DNA from: a virus
Taxonomy: Duplodnaviria; Heunggongvirae; Uroviricota; Caudoviricetes
Virus record (IMG/VR): IMGVR_UViG_2734482543_000012
Direction: 5' to 3' (one strand)
DNA length: 24,428 nt
Shown: positions 1,637 through 24,428 of the stretch, piece by piece
Position numbering within the stretch: position 1 is the stretch's first letter
Layout of the letters: every line of letters starts with the position of its first letter
Translations under genes and position numbers: made by a program
The notes under the pieces: model-generated
Databases searched by the model: none
What the model was told of the DNA's origin: nothing
The model's input: only the letters and a program-made list of their open reading frames with translations

Positions 1637-5317
<3,681 letters not shown>

Positions 5318-7034: not shown

Positions 7035-8060
7035 ATGTCGATGTACACAACCGCCCAGCTGCTGGCGGCAAATGAGCAGAAATTTAAGTTTGATCCGCTG
7101 TTTCTGCGTCTCTTTTTCCGTGAGAGCTATCCCTTCACTACGGAGAAAGTCTATCTCTCACAAATTCCGGGACTGGTAAACATGGCGCTGTACGTTTCGC
7201 CGATTGTTTCCGGTGAGGTTATCCGTTCCCGTGGCGGCTCCACCTCTGAATTTACGCCGGGATATGTCAAACCCAAGCATGAGGTGAATCCGCAGATGAC
7301 CCTGCGTCGCCTGCCGGATGAAGATCCGCAGAATCTGGCGGACCCGGCTTACCGCCGCCGTCGCATCATCATGCAGAACATGCGTGACGAAGAGCTGGCC
7401 ATTGCTCAGGTCGAAGAGATGCAGGCAGTTTCTGCCGTGCTCAAGGGCAAATACACCATGACCGGTGAAGCCTTCGATCCGGTTGAGGTGGATATGGGCC
7501 GCAGTGCGGCGAACAACATCACACAGTCCGGCGTCACGGAGTGGAGCAAGCGTGACAAGTCCACGTATGACCCGACCGACGATATCGAAGCCTACGCGCT
7601 GAACGCCAGCGGTGTGGTGAATATCATCGTGTTTGACCCGAAAGGCTGGGCGCTGTTCCGTTCCTTCAAAGCCGTCAAGGAGAAGCTGGATACCCGTCGC
7701 GGCTCTCATTCCGAGCTGGAGACAGCGGTAAAAGACCTGGGCAAAGCGGTGTCCTATAAGGGAATGTATGGCGATGTGGCCATCGTCGTGTATTCCGGAC
7801 AGTACGTGGAAAACGGCGTCAAAAAGAACTTCCTGCCGGACAACACGATGGTGCTGGGGAACACTCAGGCTCGCGGTCTGCGCACCTATGGCTGCATTCA
7901 GGATGCGGACGCACAGCGCGAAGGCATTAACGCTTCTGCCCGTTACCCGAAAAACTGGGTGACCACCGGCGATCCGGCGCGTGAGTTCACCATGATTCAG
8001 TCAGCACCGCTGATGCTGCTGGCTGATCCTGATGAGTTCGTGTCCGTTCAACTGGCGTAA
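7035..8060 (+). CDS. E: Major capsid protein gpE (341 aa)
   Basis: MSMYTTAQLLAANEQKFKFDPLFLRLFFRESYPFTTEKVYLSQIPGLVNMALYVSP... is near-identical to lambda gpE. The ORF track extends 9 codons upstream; the lambda-equivalent start is used. Confidence 0.97.
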   Translation: MSMYTTAQLLAANEQKFKFDPLFLRLFFRESYPFTTEKVYLSQIPGLVNMALYVSPIVSGEVIRSRGGSTSEFTPGYVKPKHEVNPQMTLRRLPDEDPQNLADPAYRRRRIIMQNMRDEELAIAQVEEMQAVSAVLKGKYTMTGEAFDPVEVDMGRSAANNITQSGVTEWSKRDKSTYDPTDDIEAYALNASGVVNIIVFDPKGWALFRSFKAVKEKLDTRRGSHSELETAVKDLGKAVSYKGMYGDVAIVVYSGQYVENGVKKNFLPDNTMVLGNTQARGLRTYGCIQDADAQREGINASARYPKNWVTTGDPAREFTMIQSAPLMLLADPDEFVSVQLA

Positions 8061-8101
8061 TCATGGCCCTTCGGGGCCATTTTCTCTCTGTGGAGGAGTT
8101 C

Positions 8102-8500
8102 ATGACGAAAGATGAACTGATTGCCCGTCTTCAGGAGCTGGGTGAGCAATTGAACCGCGATGTCAGTTTGACGGGAACGAAAGAAGAACTGGCGCTTCGT
8201 GTGGCAGAGCTGGAAGAAGAGCTTGATGACACGGATGAAACTGCCGGTCAGGACACCCCTCTCAGCCGGGAAAATGTGCTGACCGGGCATGAAAATGAGG
8301 TGGTATCAGCGCAGCCGGATACCGTGATTCAGGATACGGCTGAACTGGTCACGGTCGTGGCACTGGTGACGCTGCATACTGATGCACTTCACGCCACGCG
8401 GGATAAACCTGTGGCATTTGTGCTGCCGGGAACGGCGTTTCGTGTCTCTGCCGGTGTGGCAGCCGAAATGACAGAGCGCGGCCTGGCCAGAATGCAATAA
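8102..8500 (+). CDS. FI: DNA-packaging / head assembly protein FI (132 aa)
   Basis: MTKDELIARLQELGEQLNRDVSLTGTKEELALRVAELEEELDDTDE... matches lambda gpFI. The ORF track extends upstream; internal ATG chosen by homology. Confidence 0.9.
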   Translation: MTKDELIARLQELGEQLNRDVSLTGTKEELALRVAELEEELDDTDETAGQDTPLSRENVLTGHENEVVSAQPDTVIQDTAELVTVVALVTLHTDALHATRDKPVAFVLPGTAFRVSAGVAAEMTERGLARMQ

Positions 8501-11449: not shown

Positions 11450-14040
11450 ACCGGTAGGCGATCTGGTCGTTGATTTGAGTCTGGATGCGGCCAGATTTGA
11501 CGAGCAGATGGCCAGAGTCAGGCGTCATTTTTCCGGTACGGAAAGTGATGCGAAAAAAACAGCGGCAGTCGTTGAACAGTCGCTGAGCCGACAGGCGCTG
11601 GCTGCACAGAAAGCGGGGATTTCCGTCGGGCAGTATAAAGCCGCCATGCGTATGCTGCCTGCACAGTTCACCGACGTGGCCACGCAGCTTGCAGGGGGGC
11701 AGAATCCCTGGCTGATCCTGCTGCAACAGGGTGGTCAGGTTAAGGACTCCTTCGGCGGGATGATCCCCATGTTCAGGGGGCTTGCCGGCGCGATCACCCT
11801 GCCGATGGTGGGGGCCACCTCGCTGGCGGTGGCGACCGGTGCGCTGGCGTATGCCTGGTATCAGGGCAACTCAACCCTGTCCGATTTCAACAAAACGCTG
11901 GTCCTTTCCGGTAATCAGGCGGGACTGACGGCAGATCGTATGCTGGTCCTGTCCAGAGCCGGGCAGGCGGCAGGGCTGACGTTTAACCAGACCAGCGAGT
12001 CACTCAGCGCACTGGTTAAGGCGGGGGTAAGCGGTGAGGCTCAGATTGCGTCCATCAGCCAGAGTGTGGCGCGTTTCTCCTATGCATCCGGCGTGGAGGT
12101 GGACAAGGTCGCTGAAGCCTTCGGGAAGCTGACCACAGACCCGACGTCGGGGCTGACGGCGATGGCACGCCAGTTCCATAACGTGACGGCGGAGCAGATT
12201 GCGTATGTTGCTCAGTTGCAGCGTTCCGGCGATGAAGCCGGGGCATTGCAGGCGGCGAACGAGGCCGCAACGAAAGGGTTTGATGACCAGACCCGCCGCC
12301 TGAAAGAGAACATGGGCACGCTGGAGACCTGGGCAGACAGGACTGCACGTGCATTCAAATCCATGTGGGATGCGGTGCTGGATATTGGTCGTCCTGATAC
12401 CGCGCAGGAGATGCTGATTAAGGCAGAGGCTGCGTTTAAGAAAGCAGACGACATCTGGAATCTGCGCAAGGATGATTATTTCGTTAACGATGAAGCACGG
12501 GCGCGTTACTGGGATGATCGTGAAAAAAAACGCCTGGAGCGGGATGCAGCCCAAAAGAGGGTAGATCAACAGCGTCAACAGGACAAAAATGCGCAGCAGC
12601 AGAGCGATACCGAAGCGTCACGGCTGAAATATACCGAAGAGGCGCAGAAGGCTTACGAACGGCTGCAGACGCCGCTGGAGAAATATACCGCCCGTCAGGA
12701 AGAACTGAACAAGGCACTGAAAGACGGAAAAATCCTGCAGGCAGATTACAACACGCTGATGGCGGCGGCGAAAAAGGATTATGAAGCGACGCTGAAAAAG
12801 CCGAAACAGTCCGGCGTGAAGGTGTATGCGGGCGATCGTCAGGAAGACAGTGCTCATGCGGCCCTGCTGACGCTTCAGGCAGAACTCCGGACGCTGGAGA
12901 AGCATGCCGGAGCGAATGAGAAAATCAGCCAGCAGCGCCGGGATTTGTGGAAGGCAGAAAGTCAGTTCGCGGTACTGGAGGAGGCGGCACAACGTCGCCA
13001 GCTGTCCGCACAGGAGAAATCCCTGCTGGCGCATAAAGACGAGACGCTGGAGTACAAACGCCAGCTGGCTGCACTTGGTGACAAGGTTACGTATCAGGAG
13101 CACCTGAATGCGCTGGCGCAGCAGGCGGATAAATTCGCACAGCAGCAACGGGCAAAACGGGCAGCCATTGATGCGAAAAACCGGGGGCTGACTGACCGGC
13201 AGGCAGCGCGGGAAGCCACGGAACAGCGCCTGAAGGAACAGTATGGCGATAATCCTCTGGCGCTGAATAACGTCATGTCAGAGCAGAAAAAGACCTGGGC
13301 GGCTGAAGACCAGCTTCGCGGGAGCTGGATGGCAGGCCTGAAGTCCGGCTGGAGTGAGTGGGAAGAGAGCGCCACGGACAGTATGTCACAGGTTAAAAGT
13401 GCAGCCACGCAGACCTNNNNNNNNNNNNNNNNNNNNNNNNNNNNNNNNNNNNNNNNNNNNNNNNNNNNNNNNNNNNNNNNNNNNNNNNNNNNNNNNNNNN
13501 NNNNNNNNNNNNNNNNNNNNNNNNNNNNNNNNNNNNNNNNNNNNNNNNNNNNNNNNNNNNNNNNNNNNNNNNNNNNNNNNNNNNNNNNNNNNNNNNNNNN
13601 NNNNNNNNNNNNNNNNNNNNNNNNNNNNNNNNNNNNNNNNNNNNNNNNNNNNNNNNNNNNNNNNNNNNNNNNNNNNNNNNNNNNNNNNNNNNNNNNNNAC
13701 CGGCGGCAAATATGAGCCAGCGGGGATTGTTCACCGTGGTGAATTTGTCTTCACGAAGGAGGCAACCAGCCGGATTGGCGTGGGGAATCTCTACCGGCTG
13801 ATGCGCGGCTATGCGGAAGGTGGTTATGTGGGCGGTGCCGGAAGTCCGGCGCAGATGCGGCGGGCTGAAGGCATTAATTTTAATCAGAACAATCACGTGG
13901 TGATTCAGAACGACGGTACGAATGGTCTGCCAGGTCCACAGATGATGAAGGCCGTGTATGACATGGCCCGCAAGGGTGCCCGTGATGAAATTCAGACACA
14001 GATGCGTGATGGTGGCCTGTTCTCCGGAGGTGGACGATGA
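11442..14040 (+). CDS. H: Tail tape-measure protein gpH, interrupted by an N-run (13417-13698). The two halves are in different frames because the gap length is arbitrary.
   Basis: N-terminal part MAEPVGDLVVDLSLDAARFDEQMARVRRHFSGTESDAKK... and C-terminal part ...GGKYEPAGIVHRGEFVFTKEATSRIGVGNLYRLMRGYA...QTQMRDGGLFSGGGR both match lambda gpH. The stop overlaps the M start as in lambda. Confidence 0.9.
13417..13698. other. Assembly gap / masked sequence (282 N) inside the tape-measure gene
   Basis: Continuous run of n characters. By comparison with lambda H length, roughly 245 nt of real sequence would be expected here, so the gap size is not exact. Confidence 0.95.
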
Positions 14041-16442: not shown

Positions 16443-19400
16443 ATGGGTAAAGGCAGCAGTAAGGGGCATACCCCGCGCGAAGCGAAGGACAACCTGAAGT
16501 CCACGCAGCTGCTGAGTGTGATCGATGCCATCAGCGAAGGGCCGGTTGAAGGTCCGGTGGATGGATTAAAAAGCGTGCTGCTGAACAGTACGCCGGTGCT
16601 GGACAGTGAGGGGAATACCAACATCTCCGGCGTCACGGTGGTGTTCCGGGCAGGTGAGCAGGAGCAGTCACCGCCGGAGGGATTTGAATCCTCCGGCTCC
16701 GAGACGGTGCTGGGTACGGAAGTGAAATATGACACGCCGATCACCCGGACCATCACGTCGGCAAACATTGACCGACTGCGTTTTACCTTCGGTGTACAGG
16801 CACTGGTGGAAACCACCTCAAAGGGAGACAGGAATCCGTCTGAAGTTCGCCTGCTGGTTCAGATACAGCGTAACGGTGGCTGGGTGACGGAAAAAGACAT
16901 CACCATTAAGGGCAAAACCACCTCGCAGTATCTGGCCTCGGTGGTGGTGGATAACCTGCCGCCGCGCCCGTTTAATATCCGGATGCGCAGAATGACGCCG
17001 GACAGCACCACAGACCAGCTGCAGAACAAAACGCTCTGGTCGTCATACACCGAAATCATCGATGTGAAACAGTGCTACCCGAACACGGCACTGGTCGGCG
17101 TACAGGTGGATTCGGAGCAGTTCGGCAGCCAGCAGGTGAGCCGTAATTATCATCTTCGCGGGCGCATTCTGCAGGTGCCGTCGAACTATAATCCGCAGAC
17201 GCGGCAATACAGCGGTATCTGGGACGGAACGTTAAAACCGGCATACAGCAACAACATGGCCTGGTGTCTGTGGGATATGCTGACCCATCCGCGCTATGGC
17301 ATGGGGAAACGTCTTGGTGCGGCAGATGTGGATAAATGGGCGCTGTATGTCATCGGCCAGTACTGTGACCAGTCGGTGCCGGACGGCTTTGGCAGCACGG
17401 AGCCGCGCATCACCTGTAATGCCTGGCTGACCACACAGCGCAAGGCGTGGGATGTGCTCAGTGATTTCTGCTCGGCGATGCGCTGTATGCCGGTATGGAA
17501 CGGGCAGACGCTGACGTTCGTGCAGGACCGACAGTCGGATAAGGTGTGGGCCTATAACCGCAGTAATGTGGTGATGCCGGATGATGGCGCGCCGTTCCGC
17601 TACAGTTTCAGCGCCCTGAAAGACCGCCATAATGCCGTTGAGGTGAACTGGATTGACCCGGATAACGGCTGGGAGACGGCGACAGAGCTTGTGGAGGATA
17701 CGCAGGCCATTGTCCGTTACGGTCGTAACGTCACGAAGATGGATGCCTTTGGCTGTACCAGCCGGGGGCAGGCACACCGCGCCGGGCTGTGGCTGATTAA
17801 AACGGAACTGCTGGAGACGCAGACCGTGGATTTCAGCGTGGGTGCTGAAGGGCTTCGTCATGTACCGGGCGATGTCATTGAAATCTGCGATGATGACTAT
17901 GCCGGTATCCGCACCGGCGGGCGCGTGCTGGCGGTGAACAGCCAGACCCGGACGCTGACGCTCGACCGTGAAATCACGCTGCCATCCTCCGGCACCACGC
18001 TGATAAGCCTGGTTGACGGGCAGGGGAATCCGGTCAGCGTGGAGGTCCAGTCCGTCACCGACGGCGTGAAGGTAAAAGTGAGCCGTGTTCCTGACGGTGT
18101 TGCTGAATACAGCGTGTGGGGGCTGAAGCTGCCGACGCTGCACCAGCGATTGTTCCGCTGCGTGAGTATCCGTGAGAACGACGACGGCACGTATGCCATC
18201 ACCGCCGTGCAGCATGTGCCGGAAAAAGAAGCCATCGTGGATAACGGGGCGCACTTTGACGGCGACCAGAGCGGCACGGTGAATGGTGTCACGCCGCCAG
18301 CGGTGCAGCACCTGACTGCCGAAGTCACCGCAGACAGCGGGGAATATCAGGTGCTGGCGCGCTGGGACACGCCGAAGGTGGTGAAGGGCGTGAGCTTCCT
18401 GCTCCGTCTGACCGTAACAGCGGATGACGGCAGTGAGCGGCTGGTCAGCACGGCCCGGACGACGGAAACCACTTACCGCTTCACACAACTGGCGCTGGGG
18501 AACTACAGGCTGACAGTCCGGGCAGTAAATGCGTGGGGGCAGCAGGGCGATCCGGCGTCGGTATCGTTCCGGATTGCCGCACCGGCAGCGCTGTCGCGGA
18601 TTGAGCTGACGCCGGGCTATTTTCAGATAACCGCCACGCCGCATCTTGCGGTTTATGATCCGACGGTACAGTTTGAGTTCTGGTTCTCGGAAAAGCGGAT
18701 TGCGGATATCAGGCAGGTTGAAACCACAGCACGCTATCTTGGCACGGCGCTGTACTGGATAGCCGCCAGTATCAATATCAAACCGGGCCATGATTATTAC
18801 TTTTATATCCGCAGTGTGAACACCGTTGGCAAATCGGCATTCGTGGAGGCTGTTGGTCAGCCGAGTGATGATGCATCCGGTTATCTGGATTTTTTCAAAG
18901 GCGAGATAGGGAAAACCCATCTGGCTCAGGAGCTGTGGACGCAGATTGATAACGGTCAGCTTGCGCCTGACCTGGCTGAAATCAGGACGTCCATTACGGA
19001 TGTCAGCAATGAAATCACGCAGACCGTCAATAAGAAACTGGAAGACCAGAGTGCGGCAATTCAGCAGATACAGAAGGTTCAGGTTGATACAAATAATAAC
19101 CTGAACAGCATGTGGGCTGTGAAGCTGCAGCAGATGCAGGACGGACGCCTTTATATCGCGGGTATTGGTGCCGGTATTGAGAACACCCCTGACGGCATGC
19201 AGAGTCAGGTGCTGCTGGCGGCGGACAGGATTGCGATGGTTAATCCTGCGAATGGCAACACAAAACCGATGTTTGTTGGTCAGGGCGATCAGATATTCAT
19301 GAACGACGTGTTCCTGAAACGCCTGACGGCCCCCACCATTACCAGCGGTGGAAATCCATCGGCATTTTCCCTGACTCCGGACGGAAAGCTGACCGCTAAA

Positions 19401-19940
19401 AATGCGGATATCAGTGGCAGTGTGAATGCGAACGCCGGGACGCTCAACAATGTCACGGTAAATGAAAACTGTACGATTAAGGGCATGCTGGAGGCGACTC
19501 AGGTCAGAGGTGACTTCGTTAAAGCTGTATCCAAATCATTTCCGAAACAGGCTGGTACGTGGGGTAACACGGAAACACCAAACGGGACGGTTACAGTCAC
19601 CATAAGCGATGATCATAACTTTGACCGCCAGATTATTATTCCGCCCATTATTTTTAACGGTATAGCGTATGACGATCCGGGGAGCGGAAATAACCCAGGA
19701 GGCACGCGATACACGGGTTATGGTTTTGAAGTTCGCAAAAACGGCGTATTAATCGCATCCAGAGAAACTAAAGGTGCCATTCCCGGTAGTTACAGTGCAG
19801 TTATTGATATGCCTAGTGGTGGTGGTAGCGTCACTCTGGAGTTTAAGATTTTCCAGAAAGGCAATCAGGGGGCAGGCAATATCACCGACTGTACGGTGAT
19901 TGTGACCAAAAAAGCGGCTTCCGGCATCAGTATTCGTTGA
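16443..19940 (+). CDS. J: Central tail fibre / tip attachment (host-specificity) protein gpJ, 1165 aa. The N-terminal roughly 800 aa are lambda-like; the distal C-terminal receptor-binding region diverges from lambda J.
   Basis: [54 protein letters not shown]... and most of the body are near-identical to lambda gpJ (1132 aa in lambda). The C-terminal about 150 aa (..[32 protein letters not shown]...[10 protein letters not shown]) do not match my recollection of the lambda LamB-binding C-terminus. Confidence 0.95.
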
Positions 19941-20010: not shown

Positions 20011-20819
20011 ATGCGTAAAGTTTGTGCAGCCATTTTGTCCGCAGCCATTTGCCTGGCCGTATCCGGTGCGCCTGCATGGGCGTCTGAACATCAGTCCACG
20101 CTGAGCGCGGGGTATCTTCATGCCCGGACCAACGTTCCCGGCAGTGATGATCTGAACGGGATTAACGTGAAATACCGTTATGAGTTTACGGATACGCTGG
20201 GGCTGGTGACGTCATTCAGCTATGCAGGAGACAAGAATCGCCAGCTGACCCGTTACAGCGATACCCGCTGGCATGAAGATTCCGTGCGTAACCGCTGGTT
20301 CAGCGTGATGGCGGGGCCGTCTGTGCGCGTGAATGAATGGTTCAGCGCGTATGCGATGGCGGGTGTGGCTTACAGCCGTGTGTCGACTTTTTCCGGGGAT
20401 TATATCCGCGTAACTGACAATAAGGGGAAAACGCACGATGTGCTGACCGGAAGTGATGACGGTCGCCACAGCAACACGTCTCTGNNNNNNNNNNNNNNNN
20501 NNNNNNNNNNNNNNNNNNNNNNNNNNNNNNNNNNNNNNNNNNNNNNNNNNNNNNNNNNNNNNNNNNNNNNNNNNNNNNNNNNNNNNNNNNNNNNNNNNNN
20601 NNNNNNNNNNNNNNNNNNNNNNNNNNNNNNNNNNNNNNNNNNNNNNNNNNNNNNNNNNNNNNNNNNNNNNNNNNNNNNNNNNNNNNNNNNNNNNNNNNNN
20701 NNNNNNNNNNNNNNNNNNNCCCGACCGAATCCGTGGCCATTGATATTGCTTATGAAGGCTCCGGCAGTGGCGACTGGCGCACTGACGGTTTCATCGTGGG
20801 TGTCGGTTATAAGTTCTGA
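20011..20819 (+). CDS. lom: Outer-membrane beta-barrel protein of the Lom/Ail/PagC/OmpX family (lysogen-expressed moron), interrupted by an N-run. The N-terminal part diverges from lambda Lom; the C-terminal 32 aa are lambda-like.
   Basis: N-terminal signal peptide (MRKVCAAILSAAICLAVSGAPAWA), alternating-hydrophobic beta-strand segments (GINVKYRYEFTDTLGLVTSFSYAG, WFSAYAMAGVAYSRV), and C-terminal ...VAIDIAYEGSGSGDWRTDGFIVGVGYKF ending in aromatic F, as in lambda Lom. Position between J and stf as in lambda. The frame differs across the gap (gap artefact). Confidence 0.85.
20485..20719. other. Assembly gap / masked sequence (235 N) inside lom
   Basis: Continuous run of n characters. Alignment of the flanking Lom segments to lambda Lom suggests only about 10 codons are missing, so the run length is not informative, or extra sequence is hidden. 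Confidence 0.95.
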
Positions 20820-20844: not shown

Positions 20845-20873
20845 CAGCCCGCCGGTTCAGGCGGGCTTTTTTG
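20845..20873 (+). terminator. Rho-independent terminator-like hairpin downstream of lom
   Basis: AGCCCGCC-GGTTCA-GGCGGGCT GC-rich inverted repeat followed by TTTTTTG, about 25 nt after the lom stop. Coordinates by eye, within 2 nt. Confidence 0.65.
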
Positions 20874-20883
20874 TGGGGTGAAT

Positions 20884-23844
20884 ATGGCAGTAAAGATTTC
20901 AGGTGTACTGAAAGACGGCACAGGAAAACCGGTACAGAACTGCACAATCCAGCTGAAAGCAAAACGTAACAGCACCACGGTGGTGGTGAACACGCTGGCC
21001 TCAGAAAATCCGGATGAAGCCGGGCGTTACAGCATGGACGTTGAGTACGGTCAGTACAGCGTTATTCTGTTGGTGGAAGGATTCCCGCCGTCACATGCCG
21101 GGACCATCACCGTGTATGAAGATTCCCGACCCGGTACGCTGAATGATTTTCTCGGTGCCATGACGGAGGATGATGCCCGTCCGGAGGCTCTGCGCCGTTT
21201 TGAACTGATGGTGGAAGAGGTGGCGCGTAACGCGTCCGCGGTGGCACAGAACACGGCAGCCGCGAAGAAGTCAGCCAGTGATGCCGGCACATCTGCCCGT
21301 GAGGCGGCAACCCATGCGACTGATGCTGCAGGCTCAGCGCGTGCAGCCAGCACGTCAGCCGGACAGGCCGCGACTTCGGCTCAGGAGGCGTCTTCCAGCG
21401 CAGGAACGGCATCAACAAAGGCCACTGAAGCATCAAAAAGTGCTGCCGCTGCAGAGTCCTCAAAAAGCGCGGCGGCCACCAGTGCCGGTGCGGCGAAAAC
21501 GTCAGAAACGAATGCTGCAGCGTCACAAAAATCAGCAGCCACTTCTGCATCCACTGCGACAACGAAAGCGTCAGAAGCCGCCACTTCAGCCAGAGATGCG
21601 GCGGCCTCCAAAGAGGCGGCAAAATCATCAGAAACGAACGCCTCCACAAGCGCCAGCAGTGCAGCCTCCTCGGCAACGGCGGCAGGAAATTCCGTGAAGG
21701 CGGCAAAAACGTCCGAGACGAATGCTAAGTCTTCTGAAACGGCAGCGGAACAGAGCGCCTCAGCTGCGGCAGACTCTGAGACAGCAGCTGCATCATCGGC
21801 CCGTGAGGCGTCCATTAAGGCAGAGGAGGCAGCAGTCAGTGCCACCGCCGCCGGAAAATCGGCAGAAAGCGCCGCATCATCCGCTTCAACAGCCACAACG
21901 AAGGCTGGCGAAGCCACTGAACAGGCCAGCGCAGCAGCGAGGTCTGCTTCCGCAGCGAAGACATCCGAAACGAACGCGAAAGCGTCGGAAACCAGCGCAG
22001 AATCCTCAAAAACGGCTGCCGCATCGTCCGCCAGTTCGGCGGCGTCATCGGCATCATCTGCGTCTGCTTCAAAAGATGAGGCGACCAGACAGGCGTCAGC
22101 AGCGAGGGGCAGCGCCACGACGGCATCCACGAAGGCGACAGAGGCTGCTGGCAGTGCGGCAGCGGCAGCACAGAGCAAAAGTACGGCGGAATCCGCGGCA
22201 ACGCGCGCCGAGACAGCAGCAAAACGGGCAGAGGATATTGCATCCGCCGTGGCGCTTGAGGATGCGAGCACGACGAAAAAGGGGATAGTACAGCTCAGCA
22301 GTGCGACCAACAGCACTTCCGAGTCACAGGCGGCAACGCCAAAAGCCGTTAAGGCCGCGTATGACCTGGCTAACGGGAAATACACCGCACAGGATGCAAC
22401 GACAGCACAGAAAGGGATAGTTCAGCTCAGCAGTGCGACTAACAGCACTTCCGAGTCACAGGCGGCAACGCCAAAAGCCGTTAAGGCCGCGTATGACCTG
22501 GCTAACGGGAAATACACCGCACAGGACGCTACGACAGCACAAAAAGGAATTGTCCAGCTCAGTAGTGCAACCAACAGCACATCTGAAACGCTTGCTGCGA
22601 CACCGAAAGCAGTGAAAGCAGCTAATGACAATGCGAATGGTCGGGTACCTTCTGCCCGTAAGGTGAATGGTAAGGCGCTTTCAGCGGATATAACACTGAC
22701 GCCGAAAGATATTGGTACGCTTAACTCAACAACAATGTCATTCAGCGGTGGTGCTGGTTGGTTCAAATTAGCAACGGTAACCATGCCACAGGCGAGTTCT
22801 GTTGTTTCAATTACGTTGATTGGTGGCGCTGGATTTAACGTGGGGTCACCTCAACAGGCAGGTATATCTGAACTTGTTTTACGTGCAGGTAATGGTAATC
22901 CGAAGGGGATTACTGGTGCTTTATGGCAGCGCACATTGACAGGGTTTACAAATTTTGCCTGGGTTAATACATCTGGTGATACTTACGATATTTACGTTGC
23001 AATCGGAAATTATGCGACTGGTGTAAATATTCAATGGGATTATACCAGTAATGCCAGCGTGACGATTCATACGTCACCAGCATATTCTGCTAATAAGCCG
23101 GAAGGGTTAACGGACGGTACAGTTTATTCACTCTATACGCCATCAGAGCAGTTTTATCCGCCTGGCGCACCAATCCCGTGGCCATCAGATACCGTTCCGT
23201 CTGGCTATGCCCTGATGCAGGGGCAGGCTTTTGACAAATCTGCATACCCGAAACTTGCAGCGGCTTATCCGTCAGGCGTGATCCCTGATATGCGTGGCTG
23301 GACGATTAAGGGCAAACCTGCCAGTGGTCGGGCCGTATTGTCTCAGGAACAGGACGGCATTAAATCGCATACCCACAGCGCCAGCGCATCCAGTACGGAT
23401 TTGGGGACGAAAACCACATCGTCGTTTGATTACGGCACTAAATCCACGAATAACACTGGTGCGCATACCCATAGTTTAAGTGGCAGCACGAATGCAGCTG
23501 GTAATCACAGCCATAGAGATGGCCGTCGATTTAACCCCAGTGTTTTTAAAGATACTTATCAATATGGTTATACAAGCTCAGGTCAAAATACCTGGGGTGT
23601 ACAAGGCTCAGTAGGTATGTCTACGGGGTGGTTAGCGAATACCAGTATAGATGGTAATCATAGCCATTCACTGTCCGGCACAGCAGCATCTGCAGGTGCA
23701 CACGCGCATACTGTCGGTATTGGTGCTCATACGCACTCCGTTGCGATTGGTTCACATGGACACACCATCACCGTTAACGCTGCTGGTAACGCGGAAAACA
23801 CCGTCAAAAACATCGCATTTAACTATATTGTGAGGCTTGCATAA
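20884..23844 (+). CDS. stf: Side tail fibre protein Stf, intact, 986 aa from the ATG at 20884. Lambda-like N-terminal anchor, a long Ala/Ser/Thr-rich fibrous shaft, three tandem about 44-aa tail-fibre repeats, a tail-collar-like domain and a C-terminal His-rich (HxH) tip.
   Basis: N-terminus [62 protein letters not shown]... matches the lambda Stf (orf-401) N-terminus. Repeats [43 protein letters not shown] x3. Tail-collar-like segment [34 protein letters not shown]. HxH motifs (HTHS, HSHS, HAHT, HGHT) resemble the T4 gp37-type tip. The ORF track starts at a GTG 2 codons upstream; the ATG with GGGG upstream is preferred. Confidence 0.9.
22270..22650 (+). repeat. Tandem in-frame coding repeat, period 132 bp (44 aa), about 2.9 copies, within stf. 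Copies 1 and 2 are nearly identical at nucleotide level; copy 3 has diverged.
   Basis: Direct repetition of ..ACGACAGCACAGAAAGGGATAGTTCAGCTCAGCAGTGCGAC(C/T)AACAGCACTTCCGAGTCACAGGCGGCAACGCCAAAAGCCGTTAAGGCCGCGTATGACCTGGCTAACGGGAAATACACCGCACAGGA.. visible in the sequence, encoding the repeated peptide. Boundaries approximate. Confidence 0.8.
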
Positions 23845-24428
23845 TGGCATTCAGAATGAGTGAACAACCACGGACCATAAAAATTTATAATCTGCTGGCC
23901 GGAACTAATGAATTTATTGGTGAAGGTGATGCATATATTCCGCCTCATACAGGTCTGCCAGCAAACAGTACCGATATTGCACCGCCAGATATTCCGGCTG
24001 GCTTCGTGGCTGTTTTCAACAGTGATGAGTCATCGTGGCATCTCGTTGAAGATCATCGGGGTAAAACGGTTTATGACGTGGCTTCCGGCGACGCGTTATT
24101 TATTTCTGAACTCGGTCCGTTACCGGAAAATGTTACCTGGTTATCGCCGGAAGGGGAGTTTCAGAAGTGGAACGGCACAGCCTGGGTGAAGGATACGGAA
24201 GCAGAAAAACTGTTCCGGATCCGGGAGGCGGAAGAAACAAAAAACAACCTGATGCAGGTAGCCAGTGAGCATATTGCGCCGCTTCAGGATGCTGCAGATC
24301 TGGAAATTGCAACGGAGGAAGAAATCTCGTTGCTGGAAGCATGGAAAAAGTATCGGGTATTGCTGAACCGTGTTGATACGTCAACTGCACCTGATATTGA
24401 GTGGCCTACGAACCCTGTCAGGGAGTAA
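23844..24428 (+). CDS. tfa: Tail fibre assembly protein Tfa (194 aa); its start overlaps the stf stop (TAATG)
   Basis: [61 protein letters not shown]... matches lambda Tfa. Complete ORF ending at the last base of the window. Confidence 0.93.

Follow-up and report, generated by a model that had tools for sequence, protein, structure and literature searches.

The window (the whole stretch of DNA that was analysed, 24,428 nt) ends with a side tail fibre gene, stf, and with tfa, which encodes a tail fibre assembly chaperone. The order of genes at this end of the late operon is J-lom-stf-tfa, and lambda and the phage PhiR42_1 are alike in this respect. The set of lambda-type head and tail ORFs is complete in the window, from terminase through J. 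Judged from its sequence, stf encodes the side tail fibre of a lambda-like E. coli prophage, and its frame is intact. The successive parts of its product and the neighbouring features are listed in Table 1.

Table 1. Features at the stf locus; nucleotide positions are those of the window and residues those of the product.
Feature	Positions	Strand	Residues	Evidence
J, all lambda J domains	16443..19940	+	1165 aa	ORF list, Pfam
lom	20011..~20819	+		ORF list, Pfam
Terminator-like hairpin and T-run in the lom/stf interval, just 5' of the stf RBS	20846..20877	+		Consensus scan
stf, side tail fibre gene, intact	20884..23844	+	986 aa	ORF list, Pfam, nucleotide matches
N-terminal attachment domain	20884..21183	+	1-100	Pfam PF08400, PDB 9e7m
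Ala/Ser/Thr-rich shaft, predicted coiled coil, ~50 unbroken heptads (xxSAxxA)	21202..22248	+	~107-455	Autocorrelation, register
Shaft segment missing from Ur-lambda, 105 aa	21793..22107	+	304-408	Global alignment
Three tandem 44-aa Phage_fiber_2 repeats	22252..22647	+	457-588	Pfam, TRF
Middle module, predicted beta-sandwich, in place of the lambda hinge and distal segment	22711..23148	+	~610-755	AF2 model
T4 gp37-type collar and needle tip, seven HxH motifs	23149..23841	+	756-986	PDB 2XGF, Pfam
Variable tip segment between HxH 3 and HxH 4, 48 aa, predicted receptor-contact region	23515..23658	+	878-925	Alignment
tfa, tail fibre assembly chaperone	23844..24428	+	194 aa	Pfam Caudo_TAP, E 3.8e-44

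The stf frame and its neighbourhood

The open frame to which stf belongs (20878..23844) has no internal stop, the 986 aa being counted from the ATG at 20884. This ATG is the likely start, because the N-terminus of the product, MAVKISGV, is identical to that of the lambda Stf chain in PDB 9e7m and because GGGGTG is found immediately 5' of it. An earlier note on this DNA had described stf as a single continuous frame, where the stf of laboratory lambda is frameshifted. Our re-reading bears this out, as neither a frameshift nor a stop is present within the open frame and stf contains no N base. The note had also placed the cognate tfa immediately downstream, and this is verified: the TAA stop of stf (23842-23844) shares bases with the ATG of tfa (TAATG), and the encoded Tfa is 94.8% identical to lambda Tfa. 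A dedicated chaperone gene is thus located directly 3' of the fibre gene, as is typical of needles of the T4 gp37 type. The stem of the hairpin that precedes stf counts 8 pairs, of which 7 are G-C, and TTTTTGTGGG comes after it; this is a consensus match only.

The J protein of the window carries every lambda J domain, including the C-terminal receptor-binding domain, and is to be compared with a lambda J of 1132 aa.

Two other genes of the window are interrupted by N-runs, one at 13417-13698 (282 N) in the tape-measure gene H, where a relative has 245 nt, and one at 20485-20719 (235 N) in lom, where the corresponding stretch of a relative is 26 nt long. As the lengths of these N-runs do not match those of the relatives, the apparent frame breaks of H and lom are uninformative, and the functional side fibres that the earlier note had held likely are a possibility only. 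A split of H by a frameshift was considered and rejected, the 282 N standing for 245 nt in the relative.

The annotation of E. coli 1585m1, whose stf is near-identical to that of the window, gives a frameshift for a closely related tape-measure gene (locus L084, 301-2863), which contains one base more than the window gene within its first 1976 nt.

N-terminal domain and predicted coiled-coil shaft

The N-terminal part of the fibre is recognised both as a prophage tail fibre N-terminal domain (PF08400, residues 1-134, E 1.3e-71) and by its match to the Ur-lambda tail fibre (PDB 9e7m, residues 1-94, E 1.5e-51). In Ur-lambda Stf, for which the architecture of the whole fibre has been given, this domain forms a collar around the tail (PMC12617516). 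When the domain was used as a query against a database of 5.8 billion proteins, short fragments only were recovered, which gave no length distribution.

The shaft that follows is composed of 37% Ala, 22% Ser and 12% Thr. Its identity autocorrelation peaks solely at multiples of 7, with values of about 0.4 vs about 0.18 elsewhere, and Ala occupies register 6 in 47 of 53 heptad rows and register 3 in 34 of them. The best register is 3, with short slips to 2 and no sustained phase change before about residue 429. The recurring KTSETNA-like motifs that had been noticed earlier are indeed present, at residues 205, 247, 275, 282, 359 and 366. This heptad periodicity predicts a coiled coil, and it agrees with the coiled coil that makes up the proximal part of Ur-lambda Stf, at residues 102-393 (PMC12617516).

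Over the same region, the antisense ORF 21381..22385 (334 aa) and the stop-free ORFs of other frames were rejected as genes and are regarded as by-products of GCN-rich repetitive coding.

The shaft segment that is missing from Ur-lambda corresponds to exactly 15 heptads, and the register is therefore kept. Given the rise of about 0.15 nm per residue in a coiled coil, this segment would lengthen the fibre by about 15 nm.

Comparison with Ur-lambda Stf

To obtain a full-length lambda protein, the Ur-lambda Stf was rebuilt by restoring the missing C in lambda stf, which gave the expected length of 774 aa. In a global alignment, the window Stf is 212 aa longer than this reconstruction, in good agreement with the excess of about 200 aa that had been proposed earlier. 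The excess had been attributed to the Ala/Ser/Thr-rich shaft, and this is correct for 105 of the 212 aa; the remainder is made up of two additional 44-aa repeats (88 aa) and of a different middle module. The middle regions of the two proteins differ, from about residue 590 to 750 in the window Stf and from about 394 to 524 in lambda. Part of this gain is cancelled by the slightly longer tip of lambda, in which one SFDYGTKTTG unit and one IGAHQHPVV motif are additional. The alignment thus recovers both the shaft expansion relative to lambda and a tip that is not identical to that of lambda Stf.

Both fibres have in common the N-terminal domain, the type of coiled coil, one Phage_fiber_2 repeat, the collar and HxH needle (the tips are 75% identical), the gene order and a Tfa that is 95% identical. 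Ur-lambda Stf differs in having 15 heptads fewer, a single repeat vs three in the window Stf, a hinge and distal segment where the window Stf has its predicted beta-sandwich module, eight HxH motifs vs seven, another tip segment and the added SFDYGTKTTG unit. Because the module replaces the hinge and distal region of lambda, the geometry of the fibre may differ from that of lambda.

Phage_fiber_2 repeats and middle module

The Phage_fiber_2 repeats are detected as three stretches of PF03406 (E 9.2e-55) and as a 132-nt period at the nucleotide level. In relatives that are otherwise identical, this unit of 44 aa (132 nt) is present in 2, 3 or 4 copies, giving proteins of 942, 986 and 1030 aa, respectively. 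The number of units is therefore polymorphic, which suggests that they are gained and lost through recombination between repeats.

The middle module has no match in Pfam or among PDB sequences, with an E threshold of up to 10, and leads on its nature come from fold search only. It matches several PHROG tail-fibre families, and homologues are found in fibres of E. coli and Salmonella, where they are fused to differing distal parts. A search of the database of 5.8 billion proteins returned mostly fragments, yet these were diverse enough for an alignment. The AF2 model, which was built as a monomer from a 21-sequence alignment, is all-beta with a mean pLDDT of 76, and the module is well conserved, with invariant and near-invariant alignment columns. 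We read it as a probable structural knob, a role in glycan binding being a lesser possibility.

The G+C content is 44.7% in the middle module, 61.6% in the shaft and 55.3% in the window. The low value of the module is consistent with a separate origin, amino-acid composition also contributing to it.

Collar, needle and variable tip segment

Residues 744-986 match the needle of T4 gp37 (PDB 2XGF) with an E value of 1.4e-84, and a Collar domain (PF07484, residues 761-808, E 1.4e-11), which aligns with the collar of 2XGF, lies ahead of the needle. The seven HxH motifs are arranged as three (829, 861 and 875) and four (926, 940, 949 and 958) around the tip segment. The earlier likening of the HxH-rich C-terminal domain to fibre tips of the T4 gp37 type is thus confirmed, with the same seven motifs in both. 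The window tip and the T4 needle are 68% identical over 228 aligned residues; they agree in the collar and in the 3 + 4 arrangement, and their C-terminal strands are identical. Outside the needle, T4 gp37 is unrelated to the window Stf, and its chaperone is gp38 rather than Tfa. Along the T4 gp37 needle, seven iron atoms are bound by the HxH motifs (PMC6957217); the conservation of the motifs points to metal binding in a trimeric tip of the window Stf as well.

The T4 gp37 residues that contact LPS and OmpC belong to the part of the tip that separates the two sets of HxH motifs (PMC6957217). The tip segment of the window Stf aligns to about residues 932-965 of T4 gp37, which is the region of the receptor-contact mutants (PMC6957217). 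The segment counts 48 aa in the window Stf, 45 aa in lambda and 34 aa in T4, and that of the window is clearly divergent from the lambda one and unrelated in sequence to the T4 one. The divergence that had been claimed for the distal region is found in the predicted receptor-contact segment.

Distribution among E. coli prophages

Among complete E. coli genomes of RefSeq, 274 records match stf with an identity of at least 99%, and 1426 E. coli RefSeq genomes cover at least 80% of the gene. The best matches, which carry the annotation prophage tail fibre, extend along the entire gene with 99.7% nucleotide identity. This protein is thus already present in public databases, annotated and widespread. 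The wide maintenance of an intact stf is consistent with a function.

The lengths of related fibres were compared in a sample from IMG/VR, in which 80 loci with the first 100 residues 99-100% identical to those of the window gave 64 complete Stf ORFs, a sample biased by the near-identical N-terminus through which it was drawn. These ORFs range from 652 to 1252 aa, most of them exceeding 1000 aa, and in nearly all of them the first repeat begins at residue 466, which indicates the same 50-heptad shaft. Thus, the fibre that the earlier note had called expanded is so with respect to lambda, but not with respect to its family. A shaft expansion relative to related prophages is not borne out either: about 50 heptads are the usual form among the 64 N-terminus-matched relatives, and it is lambda that is short.

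The exact 986-aa architecture is found in 6 of the 64 ORFs. One of the six, from UViG_2667527914_000011, is identical to the window protein. The same architecture is found in WP_072034704.1, from E. coli WP3-S18-ESBL-09, with 4 residues differing from the window Stf; this copy of stf is located at the ydfJ (Qin-type) site and is followed by tfaQ and pinQ. In both WP3-S18-ESBL-09 and UViG_2667527914_000011, tfa is of the 191-aa tfaQ form, whereas the window tfa encodes 194 aa with a lambda-like C-terminus.

At least seven families of tip segments can be distinguished among the 52 ORFs that have a gp37-type C-terminus (NYIVRLA), and the variant of the window is the commonest of them (about 20 of the 52). 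The cultured lambdoid phages PhiR42_1, mEp460_ev081 and PhiR26_1 have the N-terminus, the 50-heptad shaft and the tip as in the window. The tip segment of PhiR42_1 is one residue off that of the window, but its Stf counts 1025 aa, with two repeats and another middle module.

Exchange of distal modules with other phages

The distal part of the fibre is shared with phages of other types. In the P1-like phage JL22, a myovirus, the S protein (annotated stf) has the same middle module and gp37-like tip, and tfa is shared as well, with about 90% nucleotide identity in the aligned part. At the protein level, S is 74% identical over residues 587-986 of the window Stf and Tfa is 90% identical, whereas the N-terminal two thirds of S differ from the window Stf. 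In the T5-like Salmonella phage Kenya-K18, residues ~318-465 of a fibre of 1071 aa, annotated as 'chaperone of endosialidase', are 61% identical to the middle module, which in this fibre comes directly after the coiled coil (locus L085, 4432-4908). That temperate and virulent phages trade parts of their fibres has long been known (PMC3945230).

In JL22, the shared cassette belongs to a Cin-invertible C segment, with 602-nt inverted repeats that contain cix cores and with a cin invertase. The inverted repeats are located at 2887-3488 and 7749-8350 (locus L086), the distal fibre cassette starting right after one of them, and an alternative S/U pair is oriented opposite to the shared cassette. 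A location of the window stf in an invertible segment of the Gin/Cin/Pin type was considered and rejected, as the gene contains no crossover core: the cix/gix-like core AAACCNNGGTTT has no match within 20884-24428, the window ending at the tfa stop.

Discussion

All these results, taken together, indicate that stf and tfa very probably encode the side tail fibre of a lambda-like E. coli prophage and its chaperone, with a trimeric structure, a metal-containing needle and a role in adsorption that are proposed by homology. Ur-lambda Stf is a trimeric fibre, present in four copies per virion, which binds OmpC and speeds adsorption (PMC12617516). If the homologous Ur-lambda Stf and T4 gp37 are taken as models, three Stf chains would associate into each fibre, and four fibres would form the collar at the tail tip, each docking on the tail through its N-terminal domain (residues 1 to ~100). 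The Ala-zipper coiled coil, of about 50 heptads, would then hold the tip off the tail together with the three 44-aa repeats and the beta-sandwich module, while the C-terminal collar and needle would be held together by metal ions bound to the seven HxH motifs. Through the 48-aa variable tip, the fibre could first bind reversibly to a receptor in the outer membrane and would so speed adsorption before J engages its own receptor, and Tfa may assist the folding of the tip.

By analogy, and as the earlier note reasonably suggested, the receptor could be a porin such as OmpC or, alternatively, the LPS core, to which the Stf of Gifsy-1 binds. The tip segment of the window Stf differs from those of both OmpC binders, lambda and T4, a point that counts against such an assignment.

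It could be argued that stf is intact but that the prophage is defective, so that the fibre is never mounted and stf-tfa persists mainly as a recombination cassette for incoming lambdoid phages. Lambda is indeed able to recombine with the stf-tfa genes of the defective prophages Rac and Qin (PMC3945230). Moreover, the near-identical copy of WP3-S18-ESBL-09 resides at a Qin-type site beside tfaQ-pinQ, and the related tape-measure gene of 1585m1, a strain with the same stf, is annotated as frameshifted. However, the head and tail ORFs of lambda type form a full set in the window, what looks like a break in H is accounted for by an N-run whose length is unlike that of the relatives, and the same tip is present in cultured phages. 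We therefore hold this explanation to be unlikely, although it is the most probable of the alternatives.

Another possibility is that the fibre contains two recognition sites, the gp37-like tip acting on a porin or on the LPS core and the beta-sandwich module on a glycan of the O-antigen or capsule. This would be in line with a module that is conserved and that moves between the fibres of lambdoid, P1-like and T5-like phages. Nevertheless, its fold similarity is moderate only, with 10-18% sequence identity and no binding-site residues identified, and its model is that of a monomer with a pLDDT of 76. Furthermore, the module is well conserved, unlike the hypervariable tip, which better fits a structural knob or hinge than a determinant of specificity. 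Two recognition sites are thus improbable, and we see a slimmer chance still for the more specific proposal that the tip variant reads a receptor other than the OmpC of K-12 while the module independently binds a surface glycan. If this were true, the phage could reach hosts that bear an O-antigen.

Finally, the long frame could be an artefact of Ala-rich and GC-rich repeats or of misassembly rather than a real gene of such length, as the Ala-rich region leaves long frames elsewhere too (such as the antisense one of 334 aa) and 132-nt tandem repeats could collapse or expand in assembly; but each segment of stf has specific homologues in the same frame, and this reading is refuted, as far as sequence data allow, because the 986-aa length recurs in many complete RefSeq genomes and in the IMG/VR loci, one of them identical.

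The side tail fibre of a lambda-like prophage, as we propose it, is mainly of descriptive value. The length of the shaft changes by whole heptads, the 44-aa repeat occurs in 2, 3 or 4 copies, and P1-like and T5-like phages share the distal cassette with this fibre. The tip combines a fixed scaffold of seven HxH motifs with a swappable segment, of which there are at least seven variants. These rules for heptads, repeats and tips may help when lambda-based delivery particles are engineered for new host ranges, and they imply that, within this family of fibres, lambda Stf is to be regarded as a short form and not as the reference form.
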